64,000 bases of DNA from Candidatus Moraniibacteriota bacterium (GCA_016699975.1 CP064994.1:65222-129221), one strand, 5' to 3'. Positions 33,538 through 51,396 are shown, numbered from the stretch's first letter. The notes: generated by a model from the sequence alone, not told the origin. A program made the numbers and translations.

Positions 33538-34845
33538 ATGAACATGGATACATTAAGACTCTTCCTTCTCCTTGTTTCGTTCTCCCTTCTCCCTTTTGAA
33601 AATCTGCGGGGAACTATTTTTGACATTCCGCTTTTTGCGAGCGAGGGAGCAACACTCCTTCTCGTTCTTGCAATTCTCCCTCTTTTCTTTGGAGAAAAAA
33701 GGTGGTTTCGTTTCAAAACGCCATTTTTTCTCGAAAATATTTGGCTCCAAAAATGGTTTTTTCTGGGTCTTCTCTGTCTTCTTCTCGGCGTCATCACTTC
33801 TTTGGTGCGAGGAATGATGCCCGATGCGCTCTGCCCGCTTGAGGCGACACGGACGCGTCACGGACTCGGTATTCTTCTCTCATGGTTCCTCTTTCCTCTC
33901 ATTTTAGGGTATAGCGCCTTCATTCTTGCACAGCGCCACTCCAAAGCGACCGTACTTTTTTTACTTTCTCTTTCTTTCATCCCCCTCTTGATTTTCTTAC
34001 TCTCAATCTGGATCTCGGGAGGCGGGTTTACGTATGATCAGCGGTTCCAAGGGCACATGAACTCTCCAAATGTTCTTGCGATGTATCTGGTTCCCGCAGC
34101 ACTTCTTTTTTGGTATTTCTTTCGACGACGCGGAGAGCTCTTCTCCGCAAAAAATTCTCTTCCACATATTCGTCATTTATTTTTTGCACTCTTTTTCTTG
34201 TCTGTTTTTTTTCTCATTTCGACTCGATCTTTTTCCGGAAGTATCAGCTTTTTCGGCGCCTTCTTGTTTTTTGAATATTCCCTCCTCACACGTCGAATTC
34301 GAATACCACTTCTTCTCGCCGGCATCTTCACCTTGCTTCTTGCAGGGAGTATTTTCTTACATGAACGCTTCGACAACCAATCATTTTTCGATCCAAATTC
34401 ACGATCTTCCTTTGCTTCTCGCGTGATGATTTGGAAAGCTGCCGGACTCATGATAGCCGAAAGTCCGGTTTTTGGTATTGGACCGGGAAATTTCGGTCCT
34501 TGCTACCTTTCTCACCAGCGTTTCTTTCCGCCATACCTTGAATGGTCAGCTCCCGAGCCGCACAATCTCTTCCTTGCCTTCTGGCTGGGGAGCGGTATCC
34601 TTGGAACTTTCGGGTTTTTTTCCCTTCTCCTCCTCTGGTTGTTCGCGCTTTATCCAAAAAGAGAAGAGAAGAGCAAAATAGCACTTCTCTTTCTGGCGAT
34701 TGTCATCGCACTCCTTCTTCACGGCCTTTTCGATACTCCCTATTGGCGCGCTGGACTCGCAGGCATTTTTTGGACGGTGTTTTTTCTCGGCCTACAGCTT
34801 TTGGAACGCAAATCTGAGGCATCTCTCCAAAGAAGAGAAAGCTGA
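33538..34845 (+). CDS. second O-antigen ligase-family membrane protein (paralog)
   Basis: Multi-pass membrane protein with a similar PEPHNLFLAFWLGSGILG loop pattern. Start taken at MNMDTL. Confidence 0.55.
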   Translation: MNMDTLRLFLLLVSFSLLPFENLRGTIFDIPLFASEGATLLLVLAILPLFFGEKRWFRFKTPFFLENIWLQKWFFLGLLCLLLGVITSLVRGMMPDALCPLEATRTRHGLGILLSWFLFPLILGYSAFILAQRHSKATVLFLLSLSFIPLLIFLLSIWISGGGFTYDQRFQGHMNSPNVLAMYLVPAALLFWYFFRRRGELFSAKNSLPHIRHLFFALFFLSVFFLISTRSFSGSISFFGAFLFFEYSLLTRRIRIPLLLAGIFTLLLAGSIFLHERFDNQSFFDPNSRSSFASRVMIWKAAGLMIAESPVFGIGPGNFGPCYLSHQRFFPPYLEWSAPEPHNLFLAFWLGSGILGTFGFFSLLLLWLFALYPKREEKSKIALLFLAIVIALLLHGLFDTPYWRAGLAGIFWTVFFLGLQLLERKSEASLQRRES

Positions 34846-35153: not shown

Positions 35154-36299
35154 TCACAAAGAGAGACTCACTCGGTAGAGCTTTCCGTCTCTTCTGTTTC
35201 TGAAAAAAAGTGATGTTTCTTCGGCATCGATCATGAGAGACTCCGCGTCGAAGCTCTGTGTAATATCTTTCGTATCGACAACACGAGATTTCTCACCCGT
35301 TTCTACATCCACTTTCCAAAAAGTATCCGCGGTCAAAATGGGTTTCTCGTAATAGTCGTTGGGAAGAATACTTCCTTGGGGGAGGGTCCCCGGAAGCGCA
35401 TAGTAAACAAATCGTCCATTTCGAGACCAGACTGCCTTTCCTACCAAAGAAGGAATGAAAAGATTCCGATAATTACTCCCATCCAAATCAATAAGGCCGA
35501 GCGTCAGCACTGTTCCTTCGGATTGCGTGACACCACTCACGAGAGTCTCCCCACCACGAGGAGAAAATAAGTAGTCGGTACCATACATGCCGGAAAACAC
35601 TTCTGTCGGTTCCGTCGCCAGGGCCGAAAACACGTGGAGACTGGTCTTCTCAAATGCGTTCGGCGCATTCCAAAAAGCGATACGCGCGCTCTGCGGCACA
35701 GCACTTATCGTCAAGCGGTCGAAGGGAGTCGTTCCGATTTTCTCCCAACCGGTTCCGTCTGGAGCAGCAATATTCACGGTGCGCTCGCCTGTTCCTAAGT
35801 CGGTATAATGGTAAATGATGCGGTCTCCAAGCGTTGTCCAGGCGGGAAATTCTATTCCCTCAGGAAGGGGGAGAAGCTCTTTCGATTCCCGAACAAGCAA
35901 GAACCATTCGGAAGGTTCCTTTTCCACAAGCGCCTTATCGCGAGCATTCGACCATACAATTCCACGTGGCGGAAAGGGAAACTCTATGAGAGTTTTTACT
36001 GTTTCTTCAAGAAGAAATCTTTGTTTCACCGCACGCTCATCTTTCGACACATACAAAACCGAACGACTATCGGCGTCGAGAACCGGCAGAGTCACTTCTT
36101 GTTCGGTGAGTGCGGTAATTTTTTCGATACTCTCTTTCTTTGTCGGTCCTTCATCTTTCCCAAATTCCACTCGAGTATTCGATCCTCCGGAAGACACCTT
36201 TCCTTCGAAAGGGTTGTTCTTGAAGAAAAAGTTGTAAATGAGAAAGAAAACAAGAAAAACAAAAAAAAGAGACGTAAGAACAATGAAGAACTTCTTCAT
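35154..36299 (-). CDS. membrane-anchored secreted protein, beta-propeller (TolB/WD40-like) repeats
   Basis: An N-terminal TM anchor is followed by repetitive beta-strand motifs (DGKLYRVSLS type). It is the first gene of the T4SS-like minus-strand cluster. Confidence 0.55.
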   Translation of the reverse strand: MKKFFIVLTSLFFVFLVFFLIYNFFFKNNPFEGKVSSGGSNTRVEFGKDEGPTKKESIEKITALTEQEVTLPVLDADSRSVLYVSKDERAVKQRFLLEETVKTLIEFPFPPRGIVWSNARDKALVEKEPSEWFLLVRESKELLPLPEGIEFPAWTTLGDRIIYHYTDLGTGERTVNIAAPDGTGWEKIGTTPFDRLTISAVPQSARIAFWNAPNAFEKTSLHVFSALATEPTEVFSGMYGTDYLFSPRGGETLVSGVTQSEGTVLTLGLIDLDGSNYRNLFIPSLVGKAVWSRNGRFVYYALPGTLPQGSILPNDYYEKPILTADTFWKVDVETGEKSRVVDTKDITQSFDAESLMIDAEETSLFFRNRRDGKLYRVSLSL

Positions 36300-36302
36300 A
36301 GA

Positions 36303-37622
36303 TCAACTATGACCATCGCAGCTACACCCAGAAACACTTATGTGTACGTGATTACCCTCGTCATTGACGAAAGGAACGCCACAAGCGCGAGCAGCCGACT
36401 TGATAGATTCCTTCGATGCTGCACTCCCCCTTGTCGATATATCAGCGGCACATGACTTCGGATTCTTTTTCGATCCACCATAATGGCAGGAATTCTTCGT
36501 ATGCGCACAGGCTGCATCACTAAAGTTATTCTGGCAACGACTGAATCCGGCACTATCTGAAATACTCGAGATTTGCATTTTTCCACTTCCAACTTTATCC
36601 GTCATACACTTTAGTGCATCAAGCAGTGGTTGCGATGCATCGCTACTACATTGATTTTGTATACCTGATTGCCATGTTACATCAAGAGCACAGCTTCCTG
36701 ACCCTGCTGGAGGAATCGACCCGATTGGCGAAGAAGATGCGCCTCCATCAACCGCCGCCACAGAAAGTCCACTCAACTTGAGCTTGGTAAGATCGGGATT
36801 GATGGTATCTAAGATAAGCCACGAGATGAGTGCAATAATAAGGCCAATAAGCGCACCATAGATGGTTTTCTTGGCAGTTCCCAGAAGATGTGTATTCCCG
36901 GCACTCGAGAGGTAGAGAAACCCTCCCACGATAAGCATGAAGAGCGCGGAAAGAGCAACCACCCACAAAGCGAAGAGGTAGAGATTTTTAAAATACGTAT
37001 CGAAATTTCCATTTGCATTTTCAAATCCTGGAAGGTTTTCGAGGGGAGTATATTGTAAAGAGGATGCTTTTCCAGAATCGGGAGATAAGTTATTTGTCGT
37101 TGACAATTTACAACAACTTTGAACTGCTTCTGAAGTAGAGCTCTTGCATTCTCCAATCTTTGTACCAGTCGTACATCCAGAGTTTACTGCCCCTGAATCA
37201 AGAGCGCAGATTCCTCCTGCCGCTTTACAAGAAGTATCATCATCGGGGACAGAGCCCGGTGCCATACAGCACATTAAACTTGACCCTCCAGAAATATTTG
37301 AGCTGCACTGTCCAAGAGCACTTTCGCCAAAGGAGCAGCCATTATTATTTTGAGTATACTGACGGCAGATACCACTTTCGTTTTGACCACACTTATCACC
37401 AACATTATAGACCTTCTGACAACAGCTTGAATTCACCGAATCATCACTGCAATTCCCTATTCGAGTTTTCCCATTCGAACACACTGCCTCACAAGAAGCC
37501 GTTTTATCTCCATAAGTTAAGCAGTCCGATCTTGTTTCAGGAGCTGCCCCTACCACAAAAGGACTAAGAAGAAAAACCCAAAGAAAGCTTCTGAAAAAAT
37601 AATGTGGAAAGAGAAATCTCAT
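36303..37622 (-). CDS. Cys-rich secreted/membrane protein with internal pilin-like (VirB2/TrbC-like) two-helix hairpin
   Basis: A signal peptide is followed by an extracellular region with more than 20 Cys. The central hydrophobic pair LYLFALWVVALSALFMLIVGGFLYL ... TIYGALIGLIIALISWLIL is separated by a short polar loop. A Cys-rich C-terminal region follows. Confidence 0.55.
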   Translation of the reverse strand: MRFLFPHYFFRSFLWVFLLSPFVVGAAPETRSDCLTYGDKTASCEAVCSNGKTRIGNCSDDSVNSSCCQKVYNVGDKCGQNESGICRQYTQNNNGCSFGESALGQCSSNISGGSSLMCCMAPGSVPDDDTSCKAAGGICALDSGAVNSGCTTGTKIGECKSSTSEAVQSCCKLSTTNNLSPDSGKASSLQYTPLENLPGFENANGNFDTYFKNLYLFALWVVALSALFMLIVGGFLYLSSAGNTHLLGTAKKTIYGALIGLIIALISWLILDTINPDLTKLKLSGLSVAAVDGGASSSPIGSIPPAGSGSCALDVTWQSGIQNQCSSDASQPLLDALKCMTDKVGSGKMQISSISDSAGFSRCQNNFSDAACAHTKNSCHYGGSKKNPKSCAADISTRGSAASKESIKSAARACGVPFVNDEGNHVHISVSGCSCDGHS

Positions 37623-40315
37623 ACTTGATATTTATTTTTCGAACCTTCAAATATCTCTCCCAATGAGAACGAAAATGCCACTCCCGTAATCAAGAGAATC
37701 ATCCCCAAAGAAAGAAAGAGGCGAACAGAGAAGAGAACAAATGGAGGTACCGAAGAAATGAGTGAGGCAAAGAATGTATTCGTCTTTTCTTTTCCAAGGT
37801 AATTATTACCATCCACAAGCCGAACTTGAATCTCTTTCGAAAAACGAGTGGTCTCTGAACTGAAAGGTGAGATTCTCCAGATATCAAAGAGCGCTTTCCT
37901 CAGTTCTCGCGGTTGATTATAGCTTCCTGAAAGTGTCACTGTATAAATATCCCCAGGAATACCGTTGAGGGCGAGCGAGAGTCCAGAATCGTTCCATTTA
38001 AACGGCTTTCCATTGATAGACCATATCATTTCATTTTGAGTATCTCCATTTTTTATACCATTCACGATAAAAGAGCCGAGTGTTTCTGGACGAAAAAGTG
38101 CCGAAAGTTTCGCTTCCCCGCCAGGAATTCCATCAAAGGAAGTTTTACTGAGGTCGGTCACTTCGGATCCGTCGAGATTCACGTATTTTCCGAGATATTT
38201 CGGCCACGCTATTTCGTCGTCTTCAGAAATAATATCGAAATCGGGCTCGACAATTTGAAATCGCCGAGAAACGGTGAATGATTTTCCAGTTTGCGCATTA
38301 CTCGCCGAAGCAGAAACAATATACACATCTCCTACTTTTCCGGAAACCGGGAAAAAATTGACTGGCCCTTGTTTTCCATCAACACACTCTCCCGAAACTT
38401 GACTCGTGCACACGAGAGCTTCTCCGTTTAAAGTCCAACTGAAATCCCGCATATCGCTGCCAGCATCATCAAGCGAAACGCCAACAATTTGTTGGTTTAG
38501 TACGGGACAAATCGTTTGCTGGAACATATTTTCGGCACAGAAAGAGGTTCCGTTTCGTCGAACGCTGACGAGTCCGGTGGAGGCATTCACTACGGCATCC
38601 ACATCGGAAACGTCAATCGACTTATTGGCCACTACCTTGACAACCAAAGAAGCAGTTCCACTCTGGCTCGCTTTTCCATTAAAGCTTTCGGTGGCATTTA
38701 CCGTAATACGAAGGTAAGCGATGTCATCCCGCAAATACTCTCCGAAACCAGGAATAATAGTGCCCGTCTTCGGATCTCGAAAATCGCTTTCGTTCAAGTT
38801 AAGATTGATCGCCAAATCGGTAAGGCCATTCCCTTGCGCCAACCCGATGTTTCGAGCGGTTTGGAGATCCCTGGTAATATCGACCCACACATTCTCTTCA
38901 TTGAATCGCGTATTGAAAGTTCCATCTTTGCTTGCCTGAACACGCCACACATAATTCGTAAATGAGGAGCCTCGGCGAGCATTCGACGATGACGCTCGTG
39001 CCGTGACAAGGTCACCTGTTTGAGCGAGAGACGATGCGGAAGCTCCGCTTTCCGCCCACGGGATAAGTTTTGCGGAGGGCTCTTCGGGAGTCGCAGAGAG
39101 TGAAACTTCGAGATTCTCTGCTTGTCCTCCTTCAGTTGGATCGACAAGATTTTTCTCAAGACAATCATTCAAACTGAAACCATTCGTTTTTCCCCGTACC
39201 GTTTTTATGGAAACATCGTATCCTTTCACCGTCACGGTTTTTGAGCCTTTCATCTCTTCCGGAATCTGGCAGTTATTTTTCGGCAGCGCCCACATGATCA
39301 TTTTACTGGAGTCGTCGTACTTGGTGGTGTACATCGAAGTACCCTCGACTATTACGCCCACCATATCTTCCGGCGCATACGACCATCGAAAAACATCTTG
39401 TCCAAGCCCTGCCAAGTTCGCTTCGTCTTTATTTCCATTCCGCGCGGTACTCGGATTTTCTGGATCCGTTCTCCAAAAACGCTCTTCTTCTATGGGAAAT
39501 TTCGAAGGACCGTCGTCATTATCACCTATAGGACCCGCTTCTCGCACTTCACCGTTATCGGTAATTCGGTACATCTGAGGAAACAGGTGTTCACAGTATG
39601 AAGTTTCCCCACTGTTAATCTCGTAATTGTGCCCGTCGACAAAGTCATGTACATAACAATAGTAATTTTTGTCTGATTTCGAATCACCGCCAAACGTGGC
39701 GCGATATCCGTCTTCGTCGCGATCGCCCCCCTTAGTTCCCGTTGGACTAATACGACTCGGCGCACTTGAGCGATACATGTTTCTTGCGCAGTTTTCCCGC
39801 TCTTCATCGGAAAGATTTCCATCGAGCGAGCAGGTAGCGTCAAAGTTTCCCGCAGCGATAAGTTGCATCGCTTCTATCTTCCAGTCTTCAACAGTAATTT
39901 TATCATCGTCATTCCTATCGCAGCGTTCGCGCTTTTCTCGGTTGGGTTCATTGTCGAGATCACATCCTTTCCGGCGAATAAACCACGTGTAATAAAGTGT
40001 TTCTTTCGAGCCATCGAAAAATTCCGGAAAAGCGCGTGCCTCAACCGACGTGCCTGGTTTTGGATCGGAAGGACTGAAATACAAAAGCACCTGCGGCGCC
40101 TGGCCCTTCTGAGAAGAAACATTGAAGTTTTCTCCTTGATTCTGAAGGCTTTCCTTATCGAGATGATATCGTTTCTCAAAAGCCTCAAACATGCTGGATG
40201 AGGAGCTACTCACGCTCGGCATGTTGGTCACAAAAACATTCGTAAGCTGCGCGGAAGCAGCCGAGGGAAGAACGAGAAAAAAAATGGTCAGCAATCGAAG
40301 AAAGAACAATCGCAT
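37619..40315 (-). CDS. very large secreted surface protein (898 aa) with C-terminal TM anchor
   Basis: Has a signal peptide (LVLPSAASAQ), a mostly beta-rich extracellular body and a C-terminal hydrophobic anchor. It overlaps the downstream gene by 4 nt. Confidence 0.6.
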   Translation of the reverse strand: MRLFFLRLLTIFFLVLPSAASAQLTNVFVTNMPSVSSSSSSMFEAFEKRYHLDKESLQNQGENFNVSSQKGQAPQVLLYFSPSDPKPGTSVEARAFPEFFDGSKETLYYTWFIRRKGCDLDNEPNREKRERCDRNDDDKITVEDWKIEAMQLIAAGNFDATCSLDGNLSDEERENCARNMYRSSAPSRISPTGTKGGDRDEDGYRATFGGDSKSDKNYYCYVHDFVDGHNYEINSGETSYCEHLFPQMYRITDNGEVREAGPIGDNDDGPSKFPIEEERFWRTDPENPSTARNGNKDEANLAGLGQDVFRWSYAPEDMVGVIVEGTSMYTTKYDDSSKMIMWALPKNNCQIPEEMKGSKTVTVKGYDVSIKTVRGKTNGFSLNDCLEKNLVDPTEGGQAENLEVSLSATPEEPSAKLIPWAESGASASSLAQTGDLVTARASSSNARRGSSFTNYVWRVQASKDGTFNTRFNEENVWVDITRDLQTARNIGLAQGNGLTDLAINLNLNESDFRDPKTGTIIPGFGEYLRDDIAYLRITVNATESFNGKASQSGTASLVVKVVANKSIDVSDVDAVVNASTGLVSVRRNGTSFCAENMFQQTICPVLNQQIVGVSLDDAGSDMRDFSWTLNGEALVCTSQVSGECVDGKQGPVNFFPVSGKVGDVYIVSASASNAQTGKSFTVSRRFQIVEPDFDIISEDDEIAWPKYLGKYVNLDGSEVTDLSKTSFDGIPGGEAKLSALFRPETLGSFIVNGIKNGDTQNEMIWSINGKPFKWNDSGLSLALNGIPGDIYTVTLSGSYNQPRELRKALFDIWRISPFSSETTRFSKEIQVRLVDGNNYLGKEKTNTFFASLISSVPPFVLFSVRLFLSLGMILLITGVAFSFSLGEIFEGSKNKYQV

Positions 40316-40330
40316 ACAAAAAGATTGATT

Positions 40331-41074
40331 TTATGAAATCATCATGGCGAGTACCGAAAGTAGTATAGCAGAAAAAAATGAAAAGCAGAACGAGAGAAAT
40401 ACTGATTCAGTTATAAAAACAATGCTCGCAGAGAGACTCGACCACAAGAAAGTTATGAGGAGCGAAAAATTTCCGCCGCTTCCCGAAAGAGTTCGATGTT
40501 CAAAAAATCCCACAACGAGTATTAACAAAGCATGAGCAAGAAGCGCCCATGTTCCGAACTTTCTTTTCCAGGTAAGCAGGAAGAAGCCGCGAAAAAAGAA
40601 TTCTTTGAGAAACAAAAACCAGGTAAGAAAAAGTGTGGTAACGAGAAAAGCCGAGAAGCTGCGTTGCCATTCGATATTCTTTGGATTCGCAACAAGCGCC
40701 TTTCCGGCTTCGGTCCACGAAAAAAGAATGAAGCAAACAGAAACAAAGAAAGCAAGGTGCGCGCACAAGAGAAATATATTCACGACCCATCCTCTTTTCC
40801 CCCACGAGAGCCCGAAGTCCAAGAGAGATTCTTTGGCGATAAGGCGTAAGAAGAGAACAGGGAGAAGAAAAAGTGCCGAGAAGGAAACGAGCAATTTCTG
40901 AGCGGCACTCTCTTGAGGAAACAAGAGAAGAAGCAGAACGCCCGAAGCGACGATTCCTTGCGAGGCGAGAAATGCTCGGTCGAAAATTCTTCGGGAAAAT
41001 TTGGGAGTCGGTTTCATGGGAACGATTCCGGGAGACCCGGCACAAAAAGCGACAGGTATTACTCTCTTTTTCAC
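40331..41074 (-). CDS. CPBP/CAAX-type intramembrane protease family protein (putative)
   Basis: Six TM helices with the motif EFFFRGFF (ExxxR plus FRG) and conserved His residues (LAHAL, FEH). Confidence 0.5.
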   Translation of the reverse strand: MKKRVIPVAFCAGSPGIVPMKPTPKFSRRIFDRAFLASQGIVASGVLLLLLFPQESAAQKLLVSFSALFLLPVLFLRLIAKESLLDFGLSWGKRGWVVNIFLLCAHLAFFVSVCFILFSWTEAGKALVANPKNIEWQRSFSAFLVTTLFLTWFLFLKEFFFRGFFLLTWKRKFGTWALLAHALLILVVGFFEHRTLSGSGGNFSLLITFLWSSLSASIVFITESVFLSFCFSFFSAILLSVLAMMIS

Positions 41075-41082
41075 TGAAATCG

Positions 41083-42033
41083 CTATGCAGCCTCATTCAC
41101 CTTCCATGTCTCTTGCGCTTGATTCGAAACACGAGATTTATCCGCATTCCTCCGCTCTTTCCAAGCGACTTGGGCCAGAAGGGTGAGATTTTTTTGCATA
41201 CGCTTCCGGTCAAACCTCTTTTCATTTCGGGCGCGGACAAACTTTTTATCGAAATTGTGGATCGCGAGAACCGCAAGGATGGTGAAAGGAAGCAAATTGA
41301 AGGGAAATGTGAGACCCTCAACTGGAATAAGCCCGAGCAGGATAAGCGCATCGATGATCGCAAGCCGCATATTTCCGGCAATTCGGTATCTCTTTTTTGG
41401 AAAAAAGAGGAGGAGAAAGAGAAGAAGAGTAACACAGATGCTGATGAGTGTTCCAATGCCGGGAATCGCAAGGACCATCGTGTAGTCCATAATATCCTTA
41501 AACGTAGCCACCAAAAGAAGGGGCGCGTATGAAGAAAGACGTACGCGCTCTTCTTTGTTTGGGAGGTGAAGAGATGAGGAATCATCCTCTCCTGCAGCCT
41601 CTTCTTCTTCAGCTGCACGCTCAAGAAGACGATTTTGTCTTTCCGCTTCGAGCATGGCCGCATGTTCACGCCGTTCCCACTCTTTTTCCTCCAAAATCCT
41701 TGCTTCTTCGTCGTCTTCTGGCTCCGCCTTTTGTGGCGGAGCAGAACGAGGAACAAGAGGGGTTGGCGGAACAGTACTCGTTCCTTCAACGGGCGTCCGA
41801 GACTGAGATAAGAGAGATCGAGCTCCATTTGAATAAGGAGGGACTTGCGTATCCATCAAAGCGCGTTTTTTGTCAGGATCAATACTCGCGCTCGGCGACT
41901 GCAAAGGAGAAAGAGGGTTTTTCTTCTCAGGCGAAATTTGGAGGAGAGGAGGAGATGTGCGACTCCGTGAAGGAAGCTCTCTTCCCTCAATTTGCCTCCC
42001 TTCCTCACGAATTTTTGCAGACAAAAGCGCCAT
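41083..42033 (-). CDS. membrane protein with disordered Pro/Glu-rich N-terminus (hypothetical, T4SS cluster)
   Basis: The ORF sits immediately upstream of VirB4. The C-terminal half has three to four TM helices. Confidence 0.45.
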   Translation of the reverse strand: MALLSAKIREEGRQIEGRELPSRSRTSPPLLQISPEKKNPLSPLQSPSASIDPDKKRALMDTQVPPYSNGARSLLSQSRTPVEGTSTVPPTPLVPRSAPPQKAEPEDDEEARILEEKEWERREHAAMLEAERQNRLLERAAEEEEAAGEDDSSSLHLPNKEERVRLSSYAPLLLVATFKDIMDYTMVLAIPGIGTLISICVTLLLFLLLFFPKKRYRIAGNMRLAIIDALILLGLIPVEGLTFPFNLLPFTILAVLAIHNFDKKFVRARNEKRFDRKRMQKNLTLLAQVAWKERRNADKSRVSNQAQETWKVNEAA

Positions 42034-42214
42034 ATCGTTTCAAAGAAACTTTCTTCAGAAACTCATTGTGAGCAGCGAATGTTTTTCAGAATTTTCCCCA
42101 GAAACAGAGTGTTCTTTCTCATTCCTTCTGATCGGAAGCAATCTTCTAACCCACAAATAAAGCGTTGATGGAAGCAAGAAAGATGCAAAGCTCTCTCAAA
42201 ACAAAAACATGCGC

Positions 42215-44033
42215 TTACCCGTTCATTTCATCGAATTCCCGCTTCGCTGCTTCGATTTCGGCGAGCTGTTCGGGGTTTGATGTGATAATTTGGTCTTCGC
42301 TGTAGGAAGCAACCACCTTGATCGCGACGTGTTTCGATCCGGCAAAAAATATTCCTTCTCCTACCGCACTTTCGAGCAACAGGAATTTTTCGTGATCCGT
42401 GAGATAAAAAGGTTTCCGAAACGACATCGATGGAAGCGGGTGATTGGCGAAGGAGCAGTTGAAGCGAGGAGTTGGTAACAATGGGTTTTCCGTAACGAGA
42501 ACTCATGAAGTCGCTGATGTCTTGTGTGATAGTCGTAAGTCCTGCAAAGTATTTTCGCGCACGTTTTGCGATACCGAAGAGGAAACTTGCCGCATCGTCA
42601 TTTTGCATCATGATCCACGCCTCGTCGACCACGATCAGTCTCCGGCGAAGCTCCGAACGCATTTCATTCCACACATAGTGAAGAATGAGGTACATCGCTA
42701 CCGGCCGCAATTCTTCTTCGAGGTCTCGAATGTTAAACACCACAAATTGATTATTCATGGTGATATTGCTCGCGTGGTTTAAGAATCCGGAAAATATTCC
42801 TTTCGTATATTTCTCGAGTCGAGCCGAAAGCGACTCGGTTCCTTCCATGTTACGGAGCACTTCATAGAGATCTCCTATGGTGGGGAAGCTCGAAGGGGTG
42901 AGCGTTGAAAGATCAGTTTTTCCCGTGATATCCCGAACGGCATATGTCTCACGAAGAGCCTGATCAAGAATCGAGTCTTCCTCGGGCGTCACGCTTCCGA
43001 GCATCAAATGGAGAAGACCAATCAAGGTAGCAATATTGCTCCGCAGAAGCCCTTCAAAATCCTCTTCTTCATCGCGCTTTTTGGGAAGATCAAACGGATT
43101 GATATGAAAGGGCGAATTGAGACTCATCTGAATAAATGACCCATCAACGGACTCCGCAAGATGCTTGTACTCATTCTCCGGATCAATCACGATCACATTG
43201 GTATCGAACATCATGGAGCGCAGGATTTCAAGTTTGACAAAGTAGCTTTTTCCTGCGCCTGACTTCGCAAAGATGACCATGTTCGCGTTTTCCAATTTAA
43301 ACCGGTCAAAGAGAATGAGACTGTTATTGTGTCGATTAATTCCATAGAGAATACCGTCATTCGAAGAGAGGTCAGCGGAAACAAAGGGAAAGGTAGTCGA
43401 AAGCGGCGCAGTATTGAGGTTGTTTGCCACATCGAGTTCGTCCATGCCAACAGGGCGCGTCGCAGTAAAACCCTGTTGCATCCGCATGACCGCAGGTTTG
43501 ATATAGACAAGTTGAGATTCGAGAAATGCCTCAACGGAACGACTCATGCGATTGAGCTCCTCGACAGAAGAAGCGTAGAGCGAAATGTAAACGCCAAAAC
43601 GAAAGAACTTTTCCGTTCCCTGCTGAAGTTTGTCGCGAAGTTCTTCAATATCGTGAAGCGCGGTTTCAAGAATGGGACTGCGTATCTTCCCCGCTTCCGC
43701 CTCGATTTGAATTGAAGACTCAACCCGAGTCGCCGATTTGAGGAGGTTTCGCAAAATGTCCCGCGTATCGACGGGGTGCACGAACATCGAAACATCCATC
43801 GGAAAATCAAGGTTAATAATCGGAGAAAACCAGTTCGTGTTCAAAAATCGCGGATAGGCGATAATAAAATGCGTGCGTACCAAAGTTTCTCCCGCCTGCA
43901 ACGAATTAGCACTAATTTTAATCGCCGACGGCGCGATAAGATCGCGAATGCGGGCCACTCCCTTTTGGTAGAGCGCCTCACTTTGCAAAATTTCGTTTTG
44001 TTCTCCGTTTGGATTGAGAAAAGGAACGCGCAT
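42215..44033 (-). CDS. virB4: VirB4/TrbE/CagE-family T4SS ATPase (frame broken by 1-nt insertion in A/T run near 42405-42412)
   Basis: Walker A (FAKSGAGKSYF) and Walker B (RLIVVDEAW) are present. The C-terminal 88 aa (YLTDHEKFLLLESAVGEGIFFAGSKHVAIKVVAS) read in another frame, and removing one T restores ...VSETFYLTDHEK. Confidence 0.85.
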
Positions 44034-44261
44034 AAAAAACGTTTTCGTTTTCTTGGCAAAGGTTCATCTCTCCTATTTTCGCACAATGAAAGAAAAGAGG
44101 GAACCGTCGAGGACTTCGTTCAGGAAGAAGGGATAGAGACACAGCACTGTTTCCAAGAGAAGCAGTCGAAGAATGCTTCTCCTTAAGCAAGGAATTCCGC
44201 AAGGTTTCCTTCTGTGCAAAGAAAACGAAGCCTTCTTTCCTGCTCTGCTTCTGTAAGCCCC

Positions 44262-44960
44262 TTACCGCTCCACCTCAACATCGATCGCTTCAATATTTTT
44301 CGTAAGACGCGTAGTGAAAAGCGAAGGATTGTAAGAGTTATACAAAAGCTCGATAATTTCTTCCGTATTGAGGGGCGCTACTTTGAGACCCGTTTGGGAG
44401 AGTCCGAAACTCACATGATCGACACGCTGCCACAACTGATTTTTGTAGGTCTCAAAAAATTCACGTCGTTCCGAAACAGCACCCGCCGGATTAAACAGCG
44501 TAGTAAGTCCTCGGAATAGCCCTTTCTCTTTGTCTTCAACCGGAGAAAACGGCACAACGACATAAAAGAGCTTTGACATAATATTTGATACTTCCGAAAG
44601 ACTTTTGATAAAAGTTTGGTACTCCGAGATCTGCATCCGTAAAAGATCATTTCGCTGCTGATTCTCTTTGTCTTTCAGAAGTTCGATGTAGGGACGGATA
44701 TCAAATCGGCGCGAGGAAATGACCATCTGTATAGGAAAATCGAGAGAATTGAGAAAATTTTGGTACTGAAAAATAATAGCGTCTTGTTCCTCCGCAGATT
44801 TGAGATCAAAGTTGAGCGAAGAAACAAGGAGAATGGACCGCAGTGAACCGTTTTTGAGGACAATCACGCCATCACGTATTTCATTCACGTCGACATATCG
44901 CTGCGTGCTCGACGAAGCGTCCTCGGAAACAGGTTTTCGTGAGGGAGCGAGGGATTCCAT
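44262..44960 (-). CDS. VirB4 N-terminal-domain-like protein (possible detached or frameshifted N-terminus of VirB4)
   Basis: DGVIVLKNGSLRSILLVSSLNFDLKSAEEQDAIIFQYQNFLNSLDFPIQMV matches the N-terminal region of Gram-positive-type VirB4 (PrgJ/TrsE/ConE). The 228-nt gap to the VirB4 ORF is open in a third frame. Confidence 0.5.
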   Translation of the reverse strand: MESLAPSRKPVSEDASSSTQRYVDVNEIRDGVIVLKNGSLRSILLVSSLNFDLKSAEEQDAIIFQYQNFLNSLDFPIQMVISSRRFDIRPYIELLKDKENQQRNDLLRMQISEYQTFIKSLSEVSNIMSKLFYVVVPFSPVEDKEKGLFRGLTTLFNPAGAVSERREFFETYKNQLWQRVDHVSFGLSQTGLKVAPLNTEEIIELLYNSYNPSLFTTRLTKNIEAIDVEVER

Positions 44961-44986
44961 ATGACAAGAGAATAAACAAACTCCTT

Positions 44987-45409
44987 TTATTTGCGATCGA
45001 CCAATCGCGCGAGATCACGGATATCGCGTACCGAGAGCGGCTGAGGCGATTCTTGGGTCACTTTTTTCTCCACCGTTTTCGGCGCCTCCTTCGTCGTCAT
45101 ACCAGGTCGATCCCATGTATAGACTTTCGGTCGAAAGAGATACATCGACGCGTGAATCGTAAACGAAAGAAGGGATTGATTATATGGCCGATAAAAGGCA
45201 AAGAGAGAAAAGAGCAGGATCACCGGGACAGACAGCACGAAAAAAGTCGCCGTATCGAAAAAACTCCACAAAATAAAGAGAACCGCTCCCATGCCGACGA
45301 GCCATGCGATCTGTTTCGCTGTGAGGGGACCAGCTACCTTATCCTCGACATCGATAAATTGGGGGACATTGAAGAGCATACGCTTTCTTGGAAACTCAAA
45401 AAAAGACAC
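44987..45409 (-). CDS. PrgI/VirB3-like small membrane protein
   Basis: FNVPQFIDVEDKVAGPLTAKQIAWLVGMGAV plus two TM helices fits the PrgI family pattern, and the gene lies upstream of VirB4. Confidence 0.55.
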   Translation of the reverse strand: MSFFEFPRKRMLFNVPQFIDVEDKVAGPLTAKQIAWLVGMGAVLFILWSFFDTATFFVLSVPVILLFSLFAFYRPYNQSLLSFTIHASMYLFRPKVYTWDRPGMTTKEAPKTVEKKVTQESPQPLSVRDIRDLARLVDRK

Positions 45410-45501
45410 GCCTCCTCATTTCTCTTTCCGTTACCACCTCAAACGAGAGGGAGAAATACGACGCATCCGATCAGAACAATACTTCCCGGAGAAGAATTGT
45501 A

Positions 45502-46944
45502 TTATACGGGTTCTTTCCCCGAAGGTCGAATGACGCTGACCACTCGAGGATCATTTGAGGAAGCCCGTTCTGCTCGCTTAGGAAGTGAAACCGAAGAAGC
45601 CATGGTACGGTTCGGTTGCGATGTCTCGGGAAGCGTCGCTTTCTCATTTGGGAGAATGTGGCTCGAACTAAAGCTTATCTTCCCCGTTGTCTCACCCCGC
45701 TTCTCACTCTCAATATTTTTTTGAGGAGAAGTTTCTAATTTCAATTCGGATTCCCGTGTCATTTTTTTGGGGGCTGAAAAAACAGGTGAAGTTATCCCCC
45801 CTTTGTTCGTCTCAGGCATTCCTGTAACCGAAAACGAGGAAGGAAAACTATAAACCGGATTTGAAATACCGGAAGATACTTTTCCTCCCAAAGAAGGATC
45901 TGGCGTTGGCATTTTCAGTTCCGAAAAATTCGATGTCTTTGAGGGAAGAGGTTGTTCGTCAGTGCGAGCCGTTCCTATTTCAGGCTTCACTTCACGTTGG
46001 GGTGCGAGAGCCCCCTTGGTACTCCACTCAAGCGCTTTCTTGATGGGTGAACTTGCCGTCGGAAAAACTTCTTTTGGCCGGAATGAAGTACCGATCACTT
46101 CAGACGACGCTCTGGGAGTAACCGATGTAGCACGAGCGTTATCAGAAGGCTTCTCTTCGAAAGCAGGAAAAACAATTTCTTGGCGCTCCTTATCAATGGT
46201 AACGGGAATATTCTCATCGAGAGACCGGAAAAGAAGCGAGAGTTTCTCCCGATCGGGAGCATTTAAGCGCTTTGTATTTTCTCCCTGAAAAAGAAACTGC
46301 CCTCGATCCATTGAAGAGTGCTTCCGAATACCAAGAACGTCTCGATAATGTCGCACCCAGTTTCGGAGCGATCCACGAACCGGTCCCGATTCGCCTTTCA
46401 CAATAATTCGATCTTCCGTAACGGTTTGCTCGGAAAGTCGCTGATATTTTGCCATCGCATCGAGAAGCGGCAGAGATTCTGTTTTTACTGTCTGATTCTC
46501 ATTTTCAATCAATTTCTTTTCTCTCTCTTCCTGTCTTCTATCCTCCAAATACCAAGATTCGAGTTCTCGTGTCTTTCTCTGTGCCTCTTCCTCGGAAAGA
46601 AGTGGCTGTGATGATTTTTTTTGCCATTGAGACAAAAGTTGAATCGAATCCGGAAAGAGGTCCGGAAACTTTTGAAGTATTTTTTTATTCAAACCACAAG
46701 CTATACCAAAAATGATTCCTTCAGGAATCCTCGGTATCTTTATGTGGAGCTCTTGCGGAAGATTCGAAGGTGGGAACGATTTGGTGAGAAGCGGTGCCAC
46801 AATCCCAATTACCTCGCCAACTTCCATTTCATTGTCAATGCCGAATTGAAAACAAATGTCCTGGCATAGAAAACGAGGCTCATCACTCCAGAAGAAAGAG
46901 TGGACTGGTTCCGGCAATTCCCGTGTTTTCCGAAAAAGAGACAT
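45502..46944 (-). CDS. hypothetical protein (480 aa) with S/P/T-rich disordered C-terminal half
   Basis: Long ORF inside the T4SS-like cluster. No recognisable domain. Confidence 0.45.
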   Translation of the reverse strand: MSLFRKTRELPEPVHSFFWSDEPRFLCQDICFQFGIDNEMEVGEVIGIVAPLLTKSFPPSNLPQELHIKIPRIPEGIIFGIACGLNKKILQKFPDLFPDSIQLLSQWQKKSSQPLLSEEEAQRKTRELESWYLEDRRQEEREKKLIENENQTVKTESLPLLDAMAKYQRLSEQTVTEDRIIVKGESGPVRGSLRNWVRHYRDVLGIRKHSSMDRGQFLFQGENTKRLNAPDREKLSLLFRSLDENIPVTIDKERQEIVFPAFEEKPSDNARATSVTPRASSEVIGTSFRPKEVFPTASSPIKKALEWSTKGALAPQREVKPEIGTARTDEQPLPSKTSNFSELKMPTPDPSLGGKVSSGISNPVYSFPSSFSVTGMPETNKGGITSPVFSAPKKMTRESELKLETSPQKNIESEKRGETTGKISFSSSHILPNEKATLPETSQPNRTMASSVSLPKRAERASSNDPRVVSVIRPSGKEPV

Positions 46945-46956
46945 GGGGGAAGAAAA

Positions 46957-49233
46957 CTAAATGTTTCGTACACGATGATCGTTGTTCAGTCTTTTCAATT
47001 GATCAATATTTTTACTTCCCGAGGCATTACCATTACTATTAATATGATCTTTAATAATTTTAGCATTCACCAAACCATCATCTCCTGTTTCTGCCATCTT
47101 GGAAATAATATCCACATATTTCCCGCGAACGTTTTCTGTTATGAGATTAAGATTACTATTGATAACAGAGGATTTGAGACGCTTCAAAGAATCTCCATCG
47201 CCTCGCTGGAACAGGACCTTCTTCGCTTCTTCTTCTGAATCTATAGACTTATGAAATTCTCCCGTTTGTGCGACGTGGGCCGATTGTATATTACGAAGAA
47301 CATCAAAGTCTTTCAAATTCTTCCAGTCGGTCGCTGTTATTTCACTTCCATTCGAATCAACTCCTTTTATTTTACTATCCTTGATATCTTGGCTAATTTT
47401 TGTAATAGCTCCATCAAGCGCGGTTTTAATTTGAGTTGCATAGGCTCCTCCCTTCGACCTCAACTCTTCAAAGTCTTTATTGGTAATCGTCTTTGCTTTA
47501 AAAGCGTACTCCAAAAGCTGAGGAGTCAAGCTCTTATCCGATATTTTCTTCCAGTCAATTTTCCCGGTCGCCACATAGCTCTCCAGCTGCTTCGTATTCA
47601 ACACCCCATTCTTATCGGTAAATGCGGCTACGGGATTAAAGTTGCGCATCTTCGATTCAAAAACTTTTGAAACCTGAGAATTTTCTCCAAAGAGATTCCT
47701 CACCGTGTTCAAATCATTTTGTGTTGCAAGATTACGATCAGCAAGCTCTATAAGCGCCGCCGCTTTCTCGTGAGTATTTCCCTTCTGCACGATCTCATTG
47801 AGTTTATCAGGATCCAAATCAACCATGCCTTTCTTCTTAGCTGCATCGTCAACCAATTTTTTATTTTCTTGGTCAAGTCTCGTTTGAGCAGCATCTCCAC
47901 CACCCGCTCGTACCGCCCACCTGCGTTCCCGGCTAGCAAGTGCTTCTTTTCCAAATCCAAGAGCATTTGCTCTATCTTGAATCGCTTGTTTCACTCCTCC
48001 CGTTATTCCTAATTGCCGCAAAGGGTAAGTAATCGGTGCGTGCCAGCCTCTTCTTACCCAATTTCCCATTTTTCTTCCCGCATTCGAGCCCCACTTTATA
48101 CCAAGCCCTGATATATCATTACTGGATTTCTCGGCCCAGGTAATAGCAATCCAAAAAAGCACAATGGGAATGGCAAAAAATGCAACCGCCGAGACCATAG
48201 AATCATTCACCGAATTCCCCGAAGAAACAAACGCACCTCCAGTTGCATAGTTAGGATAAATCAATGCACCCGCTTCGCGCATAACAATGATCGCAATGAG
48301 GGTCAACATCACGGCAATAGGACCATAAAATGCCCATTTAAAAAGTTTTGACCACCAGTCTCGCGCATAACTTTGAAGTGCTGGGGTAATCATCCCCACA
48401 AAACCAATTGGAGCAAACATTACAAGAATCGCAAGCGAAATCATACGAACCACCATCAAGACTGCGAGCGTCAAAAACGATGCGCCGAACAAAAACATAC
48501 AAATGGTAGCAGCAAGAAGATGGGTGGTACTAAAAGAAGAAATACTTGTCGTACCCTCAATCCCTGGAATAAGAATTTTTTGTATATTTGAAGAGCCAAG
48601 CAAACCTTCGGCAAATTTCCCACTCGTAAAAGCACTCGCTGTATTTGCCTCAGGACTTCCACCAAACACGTTTTGTGCAAAGAAATACATGGGAACATTG
48701 GCAATATCTATTACAAAGCGCGCAATAGGGAAGCTAAAATTCACCAAGAGCGCCATTATAATAAGAAGCGGAATGGTTTTCTTGTATTCATACTTATCAA
48801 GTTGAAATATGGTCGCAAAGGCCGAAAACAAAAGAACAAGGATAAAAAAGATATTGCAAAAATCTCGCACCACTATCCATACCTCATACAGCGCACCGGC
48901 ATTCATGAGTTTGGTGAACGTATTCACATCAATCGCCCACACAAACATATTCGCCGCGAGCATGGTAATCCAAGAAAAAAACACAAAAAAGGGGTAAATT
49001 AAAACATTCAAAGAAGTGGAGAACCAGCTTGACATCGAATCTCCTCCTTGCGTTTGTGCAAATAAAACAGTAGGCAAAAACAAAAAAATCCAAAGAAAGA
49101 TGAAAAATCTTCCCAAGGAGGGGGAATTCAAAAAAATGCGCGAGAAAAATTTCTGTATCGTTTTTATTTGAGAGAGAAGAATCACAAGAAGAGAGGTAAG
49201 AAGCACACTTCTTTTTCGAACAAAGTATATCAC
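46957..49233 (-). CDS. VirB6/TrbL-like polytopic membrane protein with long hydrophilic C-terminal extension
   Basis: A signal/TM segment and six or more TM helices occupy the first ~400 aa, then ~350 aa are hydrophilic and Lys/Asn-rich. AT-rich composition. Confidence 0.6.
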   Translation of the reverse strand: MIYFVRKRSVLLTSLLVILLSQIKTIQKFFSRIFLNSPSLGRFFIFLWIFLFLPTVLFAQTQGGDSMSSWFSTSLNVLIYPFFVFFSWITMLAANMFVWAIDVNTFTKLMNAGALYEVWIVVRDFCNIFFILVLLFSAFATIFQLDKYEYKKTIPLLIIMALLVNFSFPIARFVIDIANVPMYFFAQNVFGGSPEANTASAFTSGKFAEGLLGSSNIQKILIPGIEGTTSISSFSTTHLLAATICMFLFGASFLTLAVLMVVRMISLAILVMFAPIGFVGMITPALQSYARDWWSKLFKWAFYGPIAVMLTLIAIIVMREAGALIYPNYATGGAFVSSGNSVNDSMVSAVAFFAIPIVLFWIAITWAEKSSNDISGLGIKWGSNAGRKMGNWVRRGWHAPITYPLRQLGITGGVKQAIQDRANALGFGKEALASRERRWAVRAGGGDAAQTRLDQENKKLVDDAAKKKGMVDLDPDKLNEIVQKGNTHEKAAALIELADRNLATQNDLNTVRNLFGENSQVSKVFESKMRNFNPVAAFTDKNGVLNTKQLESYVATGKIDWKKISDKSLTPQLLEYAFKAKTITNKDFEELRSKGGAYATQIKTALDGAITKISQDIKDSKIKGVDSNGSEITATDWKNLKDFDVLRNIQSAHVAQTGEFHKSIDSEEEAKKVLFQRGDGDSLKRLKSSVINSNLNLITENVRGKYVDIISKMAETGDDGLVNAKIIKDHINSNGNASGSKNIDQLKRLNNDHRVRNI

Positions 49234-50208
49234 AAAAAAGAGGAGTCAAGAAATTTCCTGAGAAGCACACCCTTTTCTCCTTGGTAATGATATTCTCTTC
49301 TGTATTCTTTAAATAAAATTATCGTTATTAGTGATGTGTGTTTGTTGAAAAGAAGCTTATTTGCTTCTAGATGCAAAAAGATAAGGAAAAGAGAGTGGTG
49401 GAAGAAGTACTAAAGTTTGGTGGAAAAAAAGAAATTTTCTTTTTTAGGAAAGTTATTTACGAGAACATCGGGAGAATTCACAGGGTTTTTCTTTGTTTTT
49501 TCACCGAAAAAGATGAGATAACAACAGGATATCAACAATTTTTCAGATATTTTAAAAAAAGAATTTCTTTTTCTAGAATTATTAATAACAAAAATTTTCT
49601 TGGTGGCTCCTTGTTTTCTGAAAAGGAGGACGTTTTTAGAGGATTTTTACTTTACAGAAGTATCAAAGAAAACTTCATTCTTTCTCTTTGAAGCAGAGTT
49701 TTTGAGTGATATTGCTACAAACGAAACATTTTTTTGGAACCGAACTCCAGAATTCCTGTCATTTCCCATAAGGTTCTTCATTTGATTTGACGGAGAATAC
49801 ACAAAAAAGAGTTTTTCTGAACCTGTTTTTTATGAGAGCTTCCAAAAATTCTCTTGAAATCTTGTCCTTTGACCCATTTGAGCTCATCTGAGAGAAGGAG
49901 TTTTTGTATTGAGTGGTGGAAGTCTTGAAAAGGCAATGCTCTTGATCGTTACTTAAGCAAATTTCTGTAAAATTTTTCAGAGTTCTCAGCATGATTTATC
50001 GTAATTCTTTCTCATTCTCTCTCCATTCACATTTCTTTCGGTAAAGATCACACTCTCATTTCGTTTGATTGAGCGGTGTATTCTTGGTTTTTTTCACTTC
50101 TTCAAATCACATGTTCCCAATTTTTTCAGTGCTGCTTTTAATTTTAGAAAAATACTCCCGAAGGGAGTATTGTAAAGATTTAAAAAATGGTGTTTTGAAG
50201 CCTCTTCC

Positions 50209-51396
50209 TTAGTAAATGTAGCCTTTAATACTTCGACTGGTTGTGGGAAGGGTGCGGCGGTTTGTTTTTCCCCACCCAACATAATTCATTTCGCTGACGG
50301 TAATTTCATCGCCGGACACTTTTTCCACAAGGGCTACGTGTCCGTAATATCGATTTTCGGTGGTGACGACAATGGAGCCGACGCGAGGTGCTTTCCCAGT
50401 TTTGTATCCGAGCGCTTTAGCATTGTAAAGCCATGTCCCAGCATTTCCTCCCCACGGAACATAGCGCTTTTGGGAGACATACCATGTACAGTAGCCAAAA
50501 GGAAAGCGGTGTCCTGAACCGGCTTTCCCTTCCGGAGTGCGCCAACCAGAAATATCAGTTGCTGATCCTCCTGAAGACGTTGCATATTCGCGTCGCTCAA
50601 AAACAGGAGCTGGTTTCGGCGCTTCCTCTTTGTAGCCATCGGGAATAATGAGTTCCTCGCCCGGCTCAATGCGGCCGTCGGCGGGGAGGTTGTTAAAGGC
50701 GATAATTCGATCCTTGTCGCCATGGTACTTCTTGGCGATATCTTCGAGTGTGTCTTTTTCGGAGACAATATGCTTGAGTCCCGCGACCGGAAGAATAAAT
50801 ATCTGATCGCCGGGGCGTATCTCGTCCACATTTTGGAGATCATTCGCCCACAGAATAGTATTAACAGTAATACGATGTTTTTCGGCTACACTGCTTAGGG
50901 TGTCGCCATCTTGAATGGTGTAGATACTCACCCCACCTTCTTCCTCAGGATCTTTTTGAATAAGAGGAGAGAGATCGGCGGAGGCAATGGCGGGCAATCT
51001 TTTGGTTTCCTCGCTTTCTTCAAGGAGTGCCGAGGGATCGACGGGAGTGGATGCTTGAGCGAGGGGAAGTCCAGAGAGACTTTCTCGAATGGAAGGCGCC
51101 GATGGCTTTGGCGTGCCAGTATTTTTGGAATAAAAATAGCCGGAGAGCACGCCCCCAGGCTTTTCAGAAGAAGAGATAATAGTTCCTGTCACCAAAACGG
51201 CGCTTCCGAGCACAACCGAGAGGGCAGAATATTGGCGAAATAAATGAAGAATGCGAACCGTACGGTGTTGTTTGAAAGAAACAACACATTTTCGCTGAAA
51301 ACGGTGAAATTCAGTGTTCCCTCTTTTCAGAAACCCTCGAATTCGCTCTGAGAGACGGGTTTCTGTGGCGCGACGTATACGAGGAGAAATACGCAA
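50209..51396 (-). CDS. peptidoglycan hydrolase: 2x LysM + C-terminal CHAP domain
   Basis: Two LysM repeats (DTLSSVAEKHRITVNTILWAN; DTLEDIAKKYHGDKDRIIAFNN) are followed by a CHAP domain (GYCTWYVSQK...GNAGTW...GSIVV...GHVALVE). The true start is probably internal, at the signal anchor. Confidence 0.75.
   Translation of the reverse strand: MRISPRIRRATETRLSERIRGFLKRGNTEFHRFQRKCVVSFKQHRTVRILHLFRQYSALSVVLGSAVLVTGTIISSSEKPGGVLSGYFYSKNTGTPKPSAPSIRESLSGLPLAQASTPVDPSALLEESEETKRLPAIASADLSPLIQKDPEEEGGVSIYTIQDGDTLSSVAEKHRITVNTILWANDLQNVDEIRPGDQIFILPVAGLKHIVSEKDTLEDIAKKYHGDKDRIIAFNNLPADGRIEPGEELIIPDGYKEEAPKPAPVFERREYATSSGGSATDISGWRTPEGKAGSGHRFPFGYCTWYVSQKRYVPWGGNAGTWLYNAKALGYKTGKAPRVGSIVVTTENRYYGHVALVEKVSGDEITVSEMNYVGWGKTNRRTLPTTSRSIKGYIY

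Follow-up and report, generated by a model that had tools for sequence, protein, structure and literature searches.

What does a Moranbacteria chromosome encode when it carries the ATPase and channel genes of a conjugation system beside its replication genes: a module for DNA transfer, or an apparatus for contact with another cell? The question arises from a 64,000-nucleotide stretch of a Candidatus Moraniibacteriota bacterium (GCA_016699975.1 CP064994.1:65222-129221; hereafter the window), in which positions 35,154 to 51,396 hold a minus-strand cluster resembling a type IV secretion system (T4SS). Here, we propose that this locus is very probably a chromosomal, vertically inherited T4SS of the Patescibacteria type, derived from the monoderm, CD1110-like conjugation machinery of the mating-pair formation (MPF) class MPF-FATA. 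ORF calling bore out the eleven open reading frames (ORFs), the coordinates, and the order given in the original prediction, which had been made from the sequence alone (Table 1). The run was described as unbroken, and it does lie on one strand, but it is not gap-free, containing spacers of 976 and 229 bp. The organism belongs to Candidatus Moranbacteria (candidate phyla radiation [CPR]/Patescibacteria), as all the best VirB4 homologues are from Moranbacteria or Moraniibacteriota (70–92% identity). Since the window also contains dnaA, dnaN, yidC, jag, ksgA, ruvB, a class A penicillin-binding protein gene, and polysaccharide genes, it represents the origin region of a CPR chromosome, with the T4SS cluster located on the chromosome about 9 kb from dnaA.

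The intact 605-aa form of VirB4 scored 355.8 bits on NF045971 (VirB4-like conjugal transfer ATPase, CD1110 family), above the cut-off of 325, and the ATPase ORF spans positions 178–734 of the 752 positions of this model. The nearest plasmid-borne VirB4 proteins are at most 36% identical and are annotated as CD1110 family. Based on the model score and these identities, VirB4 is assigned to the MPF-FATA/CD1110 type and to the Patescibacteria clade, in agreement with the earlier proposal of a minimal T4SS core of the Firmicutes type. The 232-aa ORF that had been called VirB4-N-domain-like matches VirB4 models at N-terminal positions only (NF045975 98–233, E 3.5e-10; NF045971 5–118), and the two ORFs jointly tile most of one VirB4 protein. 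It also aligns with positions 26–198 of the 201 positions of the TrsD model NF041427 (E 8e-7, below the cut-off). A match to PF26593 (TraC-like) is listed for it in a precomputed table, and the local Pfam scan gave no PF26593 match. Some relatives of VirB4 (P0046–P0052, P0101, and P0108; 857–881 aa) are ~250 aa longer at the N terminus. These were considered as TrsD–VirB4 fusions, and the idea was rejected: in BLASTP, the extension had no similarity to TrsD, and the TrsD gene stays separate.

The other members of the core are the PrgI/VirB3-like protein, which was recovered above the cut-off as predicted, the VirB6-like protein, and the 480-aa protein encoded between them. Three of 26 homologues of the VirB6-like protein match PF04610 (TrbL/VirB6). 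For an identical 663-aa protein, PF19590 (TrbL_3) is precomputed, and the local Pfam scan returned no PF19590 match. An alignment-based AlphaFold2 model (predicted local distance difference test [pLDDT] 78) resembles the R388 TrwI/VirB6 chains 7o3v, 8rtd, and 8rt9 in its transmembrane (TM) half (probability 1.0, TM-score 0.40–0.54, E just 0.09–0.3), and its 300-residue tail is modeled as an armadillo-like helical repeat. The family profile retrieved nothing from the PDB sequences, and the link to TrwI comes from the fold search; support for the VirB6 assignment is indirect, at the level of family and predicted fold. The 480-aa protein had been described as disordered, which applies to its Pro/Ser-rich tail but not to the whole chain, given the conserved N-terminal domains. 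Its family profile had no match in the PDB. In a pooled Pfam scan that took in three families and 90 proteins (40 of the 480-aa family, 26 of the family of the 316-aa membrane protein, and 24 of the CPBP-like family p228), none of the five families matched was assignable to the 480-aa or the 316-aa family. Together, the split VirB4, PrgI/VirB3, and the extended VirB6 are predicted to constitute a translocon in the cytoplasmic membrane.

The same arrangement recurs in related genomes, a comparison that the original prediction had suggested. Among contigs representing one genome per species, 80 Patescibacteria loci were found, in which VirB4 is 55–74% identical to that of the window and the core order is kept. 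ORF families were built by iterative searches, and the component counts in Table 1 use the loci with enough flanking sequence, namely 50 upstream and 55 downstream. The flanks are syntenic in the complete genome CP064989.1, where the order is identical (UbiA-UvrD-Xer-LysMCHAP-VirB6-...-VirB4-...-propeller-Wzy-Wzy). Many of the public metagenome-assembled genome records that carry the locus (L003–L082) bear the title “uncultured Bdellovibrionales,” “Micavibrio,” or “Candidatus Saccharibacteria.” The taxonomy in such titles is apparently mislabeled, because the VirB4 proteins are 56–74% identical and the synteny is the same as in Moranbacteria.

Table 1 Features of the T4SS cluster and its surroundings in the window, with their occurrence among related loci. 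Entries run in the direction of transcription of the cluster, followed by neighboring genes.
Feature	Position	Strand	Characteristics	Occurrence
LysM-LysM-CHAP hydrolase	50209..51396	−	Pfam LysM ×2, 74.8 bits; CHAP, 67.6 bits; VirB1 functional analogue	9/50, closest Moranbacteria
AT-rich, ORF-poor spacer, 976 bp	49234-50208		Between the LysM-CHAP and VirB6-like genes	
Extended VirB6-like polytopic protein	46957..49233	−	5–6 TM; ~300-aa C-terminal armadillo-like helical domain	43/50, upstream of VirB4
480-aa soluble protein	45502..46944	−	Conserved N-terminal helical domains, then Pro/Ser-rich disordered tail; no TM	43/50, always between VirB6-like and PrgI
PrgI/VirB3-like protein	44987..45409	−	PF12666, 34.9 bits (cut-off 27); two predicted TM	50/50
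TrsD-like ORF (detached VirB4 N-domain), 232 aa	44262..44960	−	VirB4/TrsD models	50/50, adjacent to VirB4
TrsD-like/VirB4 spacer, 229 bp	44034-44261			
VirB4 ATPase, 605 aa when intact	42215..44033	−	P-loop_TraG, 95.6 bits; AAA_10, 43.2 bits	
316-aa membrane protein	41083..42033	−	Pro/Glu-rich N-terminal half; three C-terminal TM helices	27/55, immediately downstream of VirB4
CPBP/Rce1-like polytopic membrane protein	40331..41074	−	PF02517 at family level	18/55, Moranbacteria-like subset only
898-aa secreted protein	37619..40315	−	Signal peptide; predicted Ig-like/β-sandwich string; C-terminal TM anchor	20/55
439-aa pilin-like protein	36303..37622	−	Signal peptide; Cys-rich N-domain; VirB2-like TM hairpin 209–273; Cys/His-rich C-domain	35/55, downstream of VirB4
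TolB-like (PD40) β-propeller, 381 aa	35154..36299	−	N-terminal TM at residues 4–22	39/55, downstream of VirB4
Two Wzy_C (O-antigen-ligase-like) genes	31793-34845	+	Pfam; convergent on the cluster end	18/55, across lineages
dnaA	25033-26561	−	Two overlapping ORFs	
dnaN	23948-24859	−	303 aa; first two domains alone visible	

Two proteins of the cluster are predicted to cut peptidoglycan. The LysM-LysM-CHAP architecture proposed earlier was recovered by Pfam, and a hydrophobic segment at residues 57–75 would serve as an N-terminal TM or signal anchor. Its best NCBIfam matches were the division hydrolases PcsB (CHAP region) and DipM (LysM region), with scores far below the cut-offs, and a PHROGs search added nothing beyond LysM and CHAP. 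The second protein is the 439-aa pilin-like protein. Of its 58 syntenic relatives, 55 match PF18895 (E < 0.01, best 2e-20) and three match TrbC/VirB2 (PF04956), although its architecture, with two extra domains, is atypical for a PF18895 pilin. Among the relatives, the extracellular C terminus carries a muralytic domain in several cases (SLT in three, SLT_3 in two, and NlpC/P60 in one), and a Cys/His-rich domain takes the place of SLT or NlpC in the window's protein and at five further loci. A search of 1.84 billion proteins yielded 301 cluster representatives (50% identity clusters) of this C-domain, which occurs together with the VirB2-like hairpin in at least 125 clusters (125 of the best 150). 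Five residues, H72, D86, E114, H117, and H119 (alignment numbering), are invariant or nearly so and align with the zinc site of Hedgehog (E ~0.12), and one member of the family matches PF01085 at E 0.005. The domain has a nearly invariant H...D...E..H.H pattern, which in the alignment falls on the zinc and catalytic residues of Hedgehog N-domains, but it differs from the Hedgehog/DD-peptidase (LAS) enzymes in being Cys-rich, in a longer His–Asp spacing, and in its fusion behind a VirB2-like membrane hairpin. It is probably, but not provenly, a LAS-type peptidase, that is, a putative zinc hydrolase. Muralytic activity is predicted both for the LysM-CHAP protein and for this hairpin protein.

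The remaining accessory proteins are located at the membrane or surface. The membrane-anchored β-propeller named in the original prediction was not recovered from its own sequence but was corroborated by the match of its family profile to TolB structures (E 1.4e-15 over the propeller region), and PD40 is matched by 12 of 44 family members. By these profiles, the 381-aa protein is classed as a PD40 propeller. It is not a TolB orthologue, because a TM anchor replaces the N-domain of TolB and Tol-Pal genes do not accompany it. The propeller and pilin-like genes are adjacent across lineages, and the internal order of the pair flips. For the 898-aa protein, previously described as secreted and anchored, a structure was predicted (pLDDT 78.7) as a string of Ig-like or β-sandwich domains; its structural matches are generic only (adhesion molecules, complement MG domains, and S-layer proteins). 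In the pooled scan, PF02517 was matched by 15 proteins (best E 4.5e-9), and these are attributed to the 24-member p228 family on the grounds of its name and its EVFFRG motif. The CPBP-like family keeps the motif (Y/K)-E-x-F-F-R-G, and the His motifs FxxxH and HxxxN/D are absent in most members. As only E-x-x-x-R-G of the catalytic signature is conserved, the protein may be non-catalytic, so that the earlier designation as a CPBP-type protease stands for the family resemblance but not for the catalytic residues. We suggest that the propeller, Ig-array, and CPBP-like proteins form a lineage-specific surface module.

How does the cluster relate to known systems? Its description as a poorly characterized combined system did not hold. 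Wang et al. 2023 (PMC10633639) showed that a T4SS cluster that contains pilin genes but encodes neither a coupling protein nor a relaxase is essential for the epibiotic growth of Southlakia epibionticum, and Quinonero-Coronel et al. 2025 (PMC12102498) catalogued Patescibacteria T4SSs in ~2,400 genomes. A 2025 review (PMC12857230) assigns them to a new branch within the T4SS superfamily, and a preprint (bioRxiv 10.64898/2026.06.21.733656) reports, by cryo-EM, tubular structures at the host interface of another cultivated member. In the catalogue (PMC12102498), VirB4 forms a clade sister to MPF-FATA, TrsD is its commonest partner, PrgI/VirB3 and VirB6 are present, LysM-bearing VirB1 analogues are linked to virB4 in Paceibacteria, pilins are of the PF18895/VirB2-like kind, relaxases are almost lacking, and virB4 lies near dnaA, dnaN, and ksgA. 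The window agrees in its VirB4 type, separate upstream TrsD-like ORF, PrgI/VirB3, VirB6, LysM-bearing VirB1 analogue linked to virB4, and probable PF18895 VirB2-like pilin, in having no relaxase or type IV coupling protein (T4CP) match nearby among the ORFs scanned, and in its chromosomal position by dnaA, dnaN, and ksgA. In contrast to Saccharimonadia, where small pilins occur in arrays, it has a single large pilin-like protein whose Cys-rich and Hedgehog/LAS-like domains are extracellular.

The MPF-FATA systems of Firmicutes (CTn2/CD1110, pCF10 Prg, and pGO1 Trs) resemble the window in the VirB4 that passes the CD1110-family model, in PrgI, the TrsD-like ORF, a wall hydrolase of the CHAP type, and the VirB6/TrbL-like protein, and in a monoderm architecture with no VirB7/9/10 core. 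The window departs from them in having no relaxase or T4CP match among the ORFs scanned, no origin of transfer (oriT) or PrgB-type adhesin, no detected VirB8-like PrgL/TcpC, and a location outside any mobile element. It further differs in its probable VirB2-like pilin, a component missing from monoderm conjugation systems. With the R388/Ti-type (MPF-T) systems it shares the predicted TrwI-like transmembrane fold of VirB6 and, at the family level, a VirB2/TrbC-like hairpin (the three members matching PF04956). It is unlike them in the absence of an outer-membrane core, VirB5, VirB8, VirB10, and VirB11, and in the long armadillo-like C-terminal extension of VirB6, as in “extended VirB6” proteins.

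We propose the following mechanism. VirB4 and TrsD would power a VirB3/VirB6 channel, and this ATPase-driven channel would assemble a short pilus or stalk built on VirB2, with wall-cutting enzymes and adhesin-like proteins on it or beside it. The LysM-CHAP protein and the pilin-borne hydrolase may open peptidoglycan, either the cell's own or that of the host, while the Ig-array and propeller proteins may mediate contact. The resulting structure would bridge epibiont and host cell and move macromolecules across the contact. Export of proteins and assembly of a pilus, for attaching to the host and breaching its envelope, are favored over conjugative DNA transfer, because no relaxase or coupling protein was matched nearby among the ORFs scanned. 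An episymbiont-like organism with a contact-dependent apparatus was also the suggestion of the original prediction; the organism does belong to the CPR, and the same functional conclusion is reached in PMC12102498 and PMC10633639.

Several points weigh against this proposal. Three assignments of the original prediction hold at the family level but not for the window's own sequences: the VirB6-like protein gave no match in local Pfam or NCBIfam, the CPBP-like protein gave none in Pfam, and the 439-aa protein, whose hairpin had been called pilin-like, scored 23.8 bits on PF18895 against a cut-off of 26.6. The profile of the Cys/His-rich C-domain retrieved from the PDB only Hedgehog N-domains, aligned on H..D..E..HxH, with non-significant E values of 0.12–1. 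Sequence searches of the cluster for a VirB8-like component (PrgL/TcpC, NTF2 fold) gave no matches. The propeller, Wzy, and LysM-CHAP genes could be part of general envelope biogenesis and not of the T4SS. We know of no measurement of T4SS function in any member of Paceibacteria or Moranbacteria to date. A T4CP gene may lie at another site in the genome, and in most Patescibacteria, according to the literature, one is present far from virB4. Lastly, the VirB4 ORF of the window, which had been listed as the ATPase, is not intact: at ~42406 a T-run is longer by a single T, which places the last ~63 codons out of frame.

Could this last lesion mark a pseudogene in a decaying locus? The loss of frame over the C terminus is what such a reading would rest on, but the conserved end (YLTDHEKFLLLE...GEGIFFAG...) is present in another reading frame, and a near-identical Logan contig (L002; 99.93% identity over 21.8 kb) contains the intact 605-aa gene and no other indel. 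In the same window, the essential dnaA is likewise split: the junction lies near 25650–25690, one ORF covering the N-domain and ATPase positions 1–125 and the other ATPase positions 133–161 and the C-terminal helix-turn-helix, which looks like a 1-nt indel. The split dnaA and the dnaN with two visible domains suggest indel errors in the assembly. As the lesion is a single extra T, the near-identical contig is intact, and dnaA is split as well, a sequence error is the likeliest cause, and the frameshift is probably of that kind; decay of the locus is very improbable. The cluster might alternatively be a routine conjugation module of an integrative and conjugative element (ICE) or plasmid. Conjugative elements of Firmicutes carry the same families of VirB4, PrgI, TrsD, and VirB6 proteins, and a tyrosine recombinase gene, which would then be the integrase, adjoins the cluster as had been stated. 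The hint of mobility did not survive: the recombinase (~300 aa) has an XerC/D-like N terminus, judged from the sequence and the CP064989.1 gene call, is syntenic in 14 loci, and is best regarded as an Xer-like chromosomal gene and not as evidence of a mobile element. Within the 64-kb window, no relaxase or T4CP family was matched (scan of the ~53 ORFs judged likely coding among the 74 of ≥150 aa), consistent with the predicted absence of VirD4 and relaxase, and neither att-like repeats nor tRNA genes were found. The flanks (UvrD, Xer, and Wzy) and the gene order are kept in the complete genome and in dozens of species-level genomes. VirB4 identity declines in step with that of the flanking genes, VirB4 being better conserved than UvrD (90/74% versus 68/57%, against loci L001/L003). 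The GC content of the cluster (0.43–0.47) is close to or slightly below that of its flanks, apart from the AT-rich stretch at 48–50 kb, and the position near dnaA is that reported across the phylum (PMC12102498). Because of the synteny and because no att repeats, tRNA genes, or relaxase/T4CP matches were found, an ICE or plasmid origin, which we consider extremely improbable, is rejected, and the locus is vertically inherited.

Two other explanations accept the chromosomal T4SS and differ in its purpose. The machine may be a Ced-like or ComB-like importer that brings in nucleic acids or other macromolecules from the host, with no protein export. This would suit a class of organisms without nucleotide biosynthesis, and the 2026 preprint proposes feeding on host RNA and ties VirB4 to macromolecule transfer. 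In ABY1-class genomes, the locus lies beside comF/recG/radA (PMC12102498), and the lack of relaxase and T4CP matches in the window is also a trait of uptake systems. VirB4 weakly matches the archaeal CedB model (E 2.3e-13, far below the cut-off), but this match reflects generic VirB4 homology, and the cluster yielded no component that binds DNA or RNA. Moreover, competence in Southlakia needs ComEC and type IV pili, whereas the T4SS is essential independently of ComEC (PMC12857230), and we regard an import function as rather unlikely. Alternatively, the locus may serve growth or division of the cell's own envelope, with the hydrolases, propeller, and Wzy-like genes at its center in place of host interaction. 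The PcsB and DipM matches of the LysM-CHAP protein, the TolB-like propeller, and the two Wzy_C and glycosyltransferase genes directly downstream are in line with this, and the essentiality of the T4SS in Southlakia could reflect housekeeping. The low PcsB and DipM scores, however, come from shared CHAP and LysM domains only, the LysM-CHAP and Wzy genes are linked to VirB4 in a subset of the loci only (Table 1), and the conserved core consists of a VirB4/VirB3/VirB6 translocon and VirB2-like pilins, which have no known role in envelope growth. An envelope role is accordingly improbable.

What the locus may add to the host-contact T4SS favored here lies in its outer parts. The system itself is already described (2023–2025), and some of its surface and wall-cutting accessory genes are unannotated. 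A term search of the text of PMC12102498 found no mention of a TolB-like propeller, the 480-aa or the Pro-rich protein, or the CPBP-like and Ig-array pair, and pilin–hydrolase fusions are likewise unmentioned in it; the paper states that adhesins were not detected. Beyond that catalogue, the pilin–muralytic fusions, the paired TolB-like propeller, and the Moranbacteria-specific CPBP-like and Ig-array pair may be new. We tentatively raise the possibility, which is doubtful at present, that the Paceibacteria-type T4SS has an undescribed extracellular half, in which interchangeable muralytic domains of the Hedgehog/LAS-like, SLT, or NlpC/P60 kind, with the VirB2-like hairpin as their anchor in the membrane or pilus, and an obligate TolB-like propeller partner would form a tip that breaches the host wall, with the CPBP-like and Ig-array proteins added in Moranbacteria as part of the same arrangement.

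The spacers and neighbors of the cluster were also inspected. The 976-bp spacer lies in an AT-rich stretch (GC 0.376 over 48–50 kb), and comparably long gaps exist at loci L001, L017, L028, and L029. Its short ORFs have no support, and it contains neither an Rfam match nor a DnaA-box cluster; it is probably the promoter or regulatory region of the T4SS operon. Rfam at the gathering threshold gave no match in the entire window, and promoter and terminator scans performed no better than chance. The minimum of the cumulative GC skew falls near 50 kb, within the cluster at the AT-rich gap, which prompted consideration of the gap as oriC; this was rejected, as no DnaA-box cluster is found there. 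The sole perfect DnaA box is at 26690 (26690–26698), upstream of dnaA, and dnaA and the box are ~24 kb from the skew minimum. The TrsD–VirB4 spacer is unusually long, 229 bp versus usually <100 bp between these genes in relatives, and it contains an imperfect inverted repeat (arms 44030–44061 and 44212–44243; 32 nt, 75% complementary) that may be regulatory or a remnant.

Glycosyltransferase genes follow the cluster directly, together with the two Wzy_C genes. The Wzy_C domain also occurs in pilin O-glycosyltransferases of the PglL/PilO type, so the pilin-like protein or the surface proteins might be glycosylated by the products of these genes. Elsewhere in the window, five minus-strand ORFs (526, 265, 306, 754, and 325 aa) at 13340–16898 and 20032–23248, two of which directly adjoin dnaN, had no Pfam match at E ≤ 0.001. 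An operon-like plus-strand run at 3590–8183 encodes a 7TM_transglut protein, a fusion of ATPgrasp_ST and Zn_protease-like domains, another ATP-grasp protein, and a Mur-ligase-like protein; it is a peptide-ligase or modification cassette unrelated to the T4SS.

The T4SS of Patescibacteria is among the few machines known to be essential for life as an epibiont in this very large bacterial radiation, most of which is uncultured. The locus analyzed here adds nothing on the existence of the system, but it indicates that the gene set conserved in Moranbacteria and Paceibacteria exceeds the catalogued VirB components. The extra conserved parts are the pilin–hydrolase fusions, the propeller, the soluble protein between VirB6 and VirB3, and the lineage-specific surface proteins, and for the end of the machine that contacts the host, the accessory proteins offer concrete candidates. 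If the tentative arrangement outlined above is true, a host-wall-breaching tip would explain how a T4SS derived from monoderms crosses the envelope of another bacterium.

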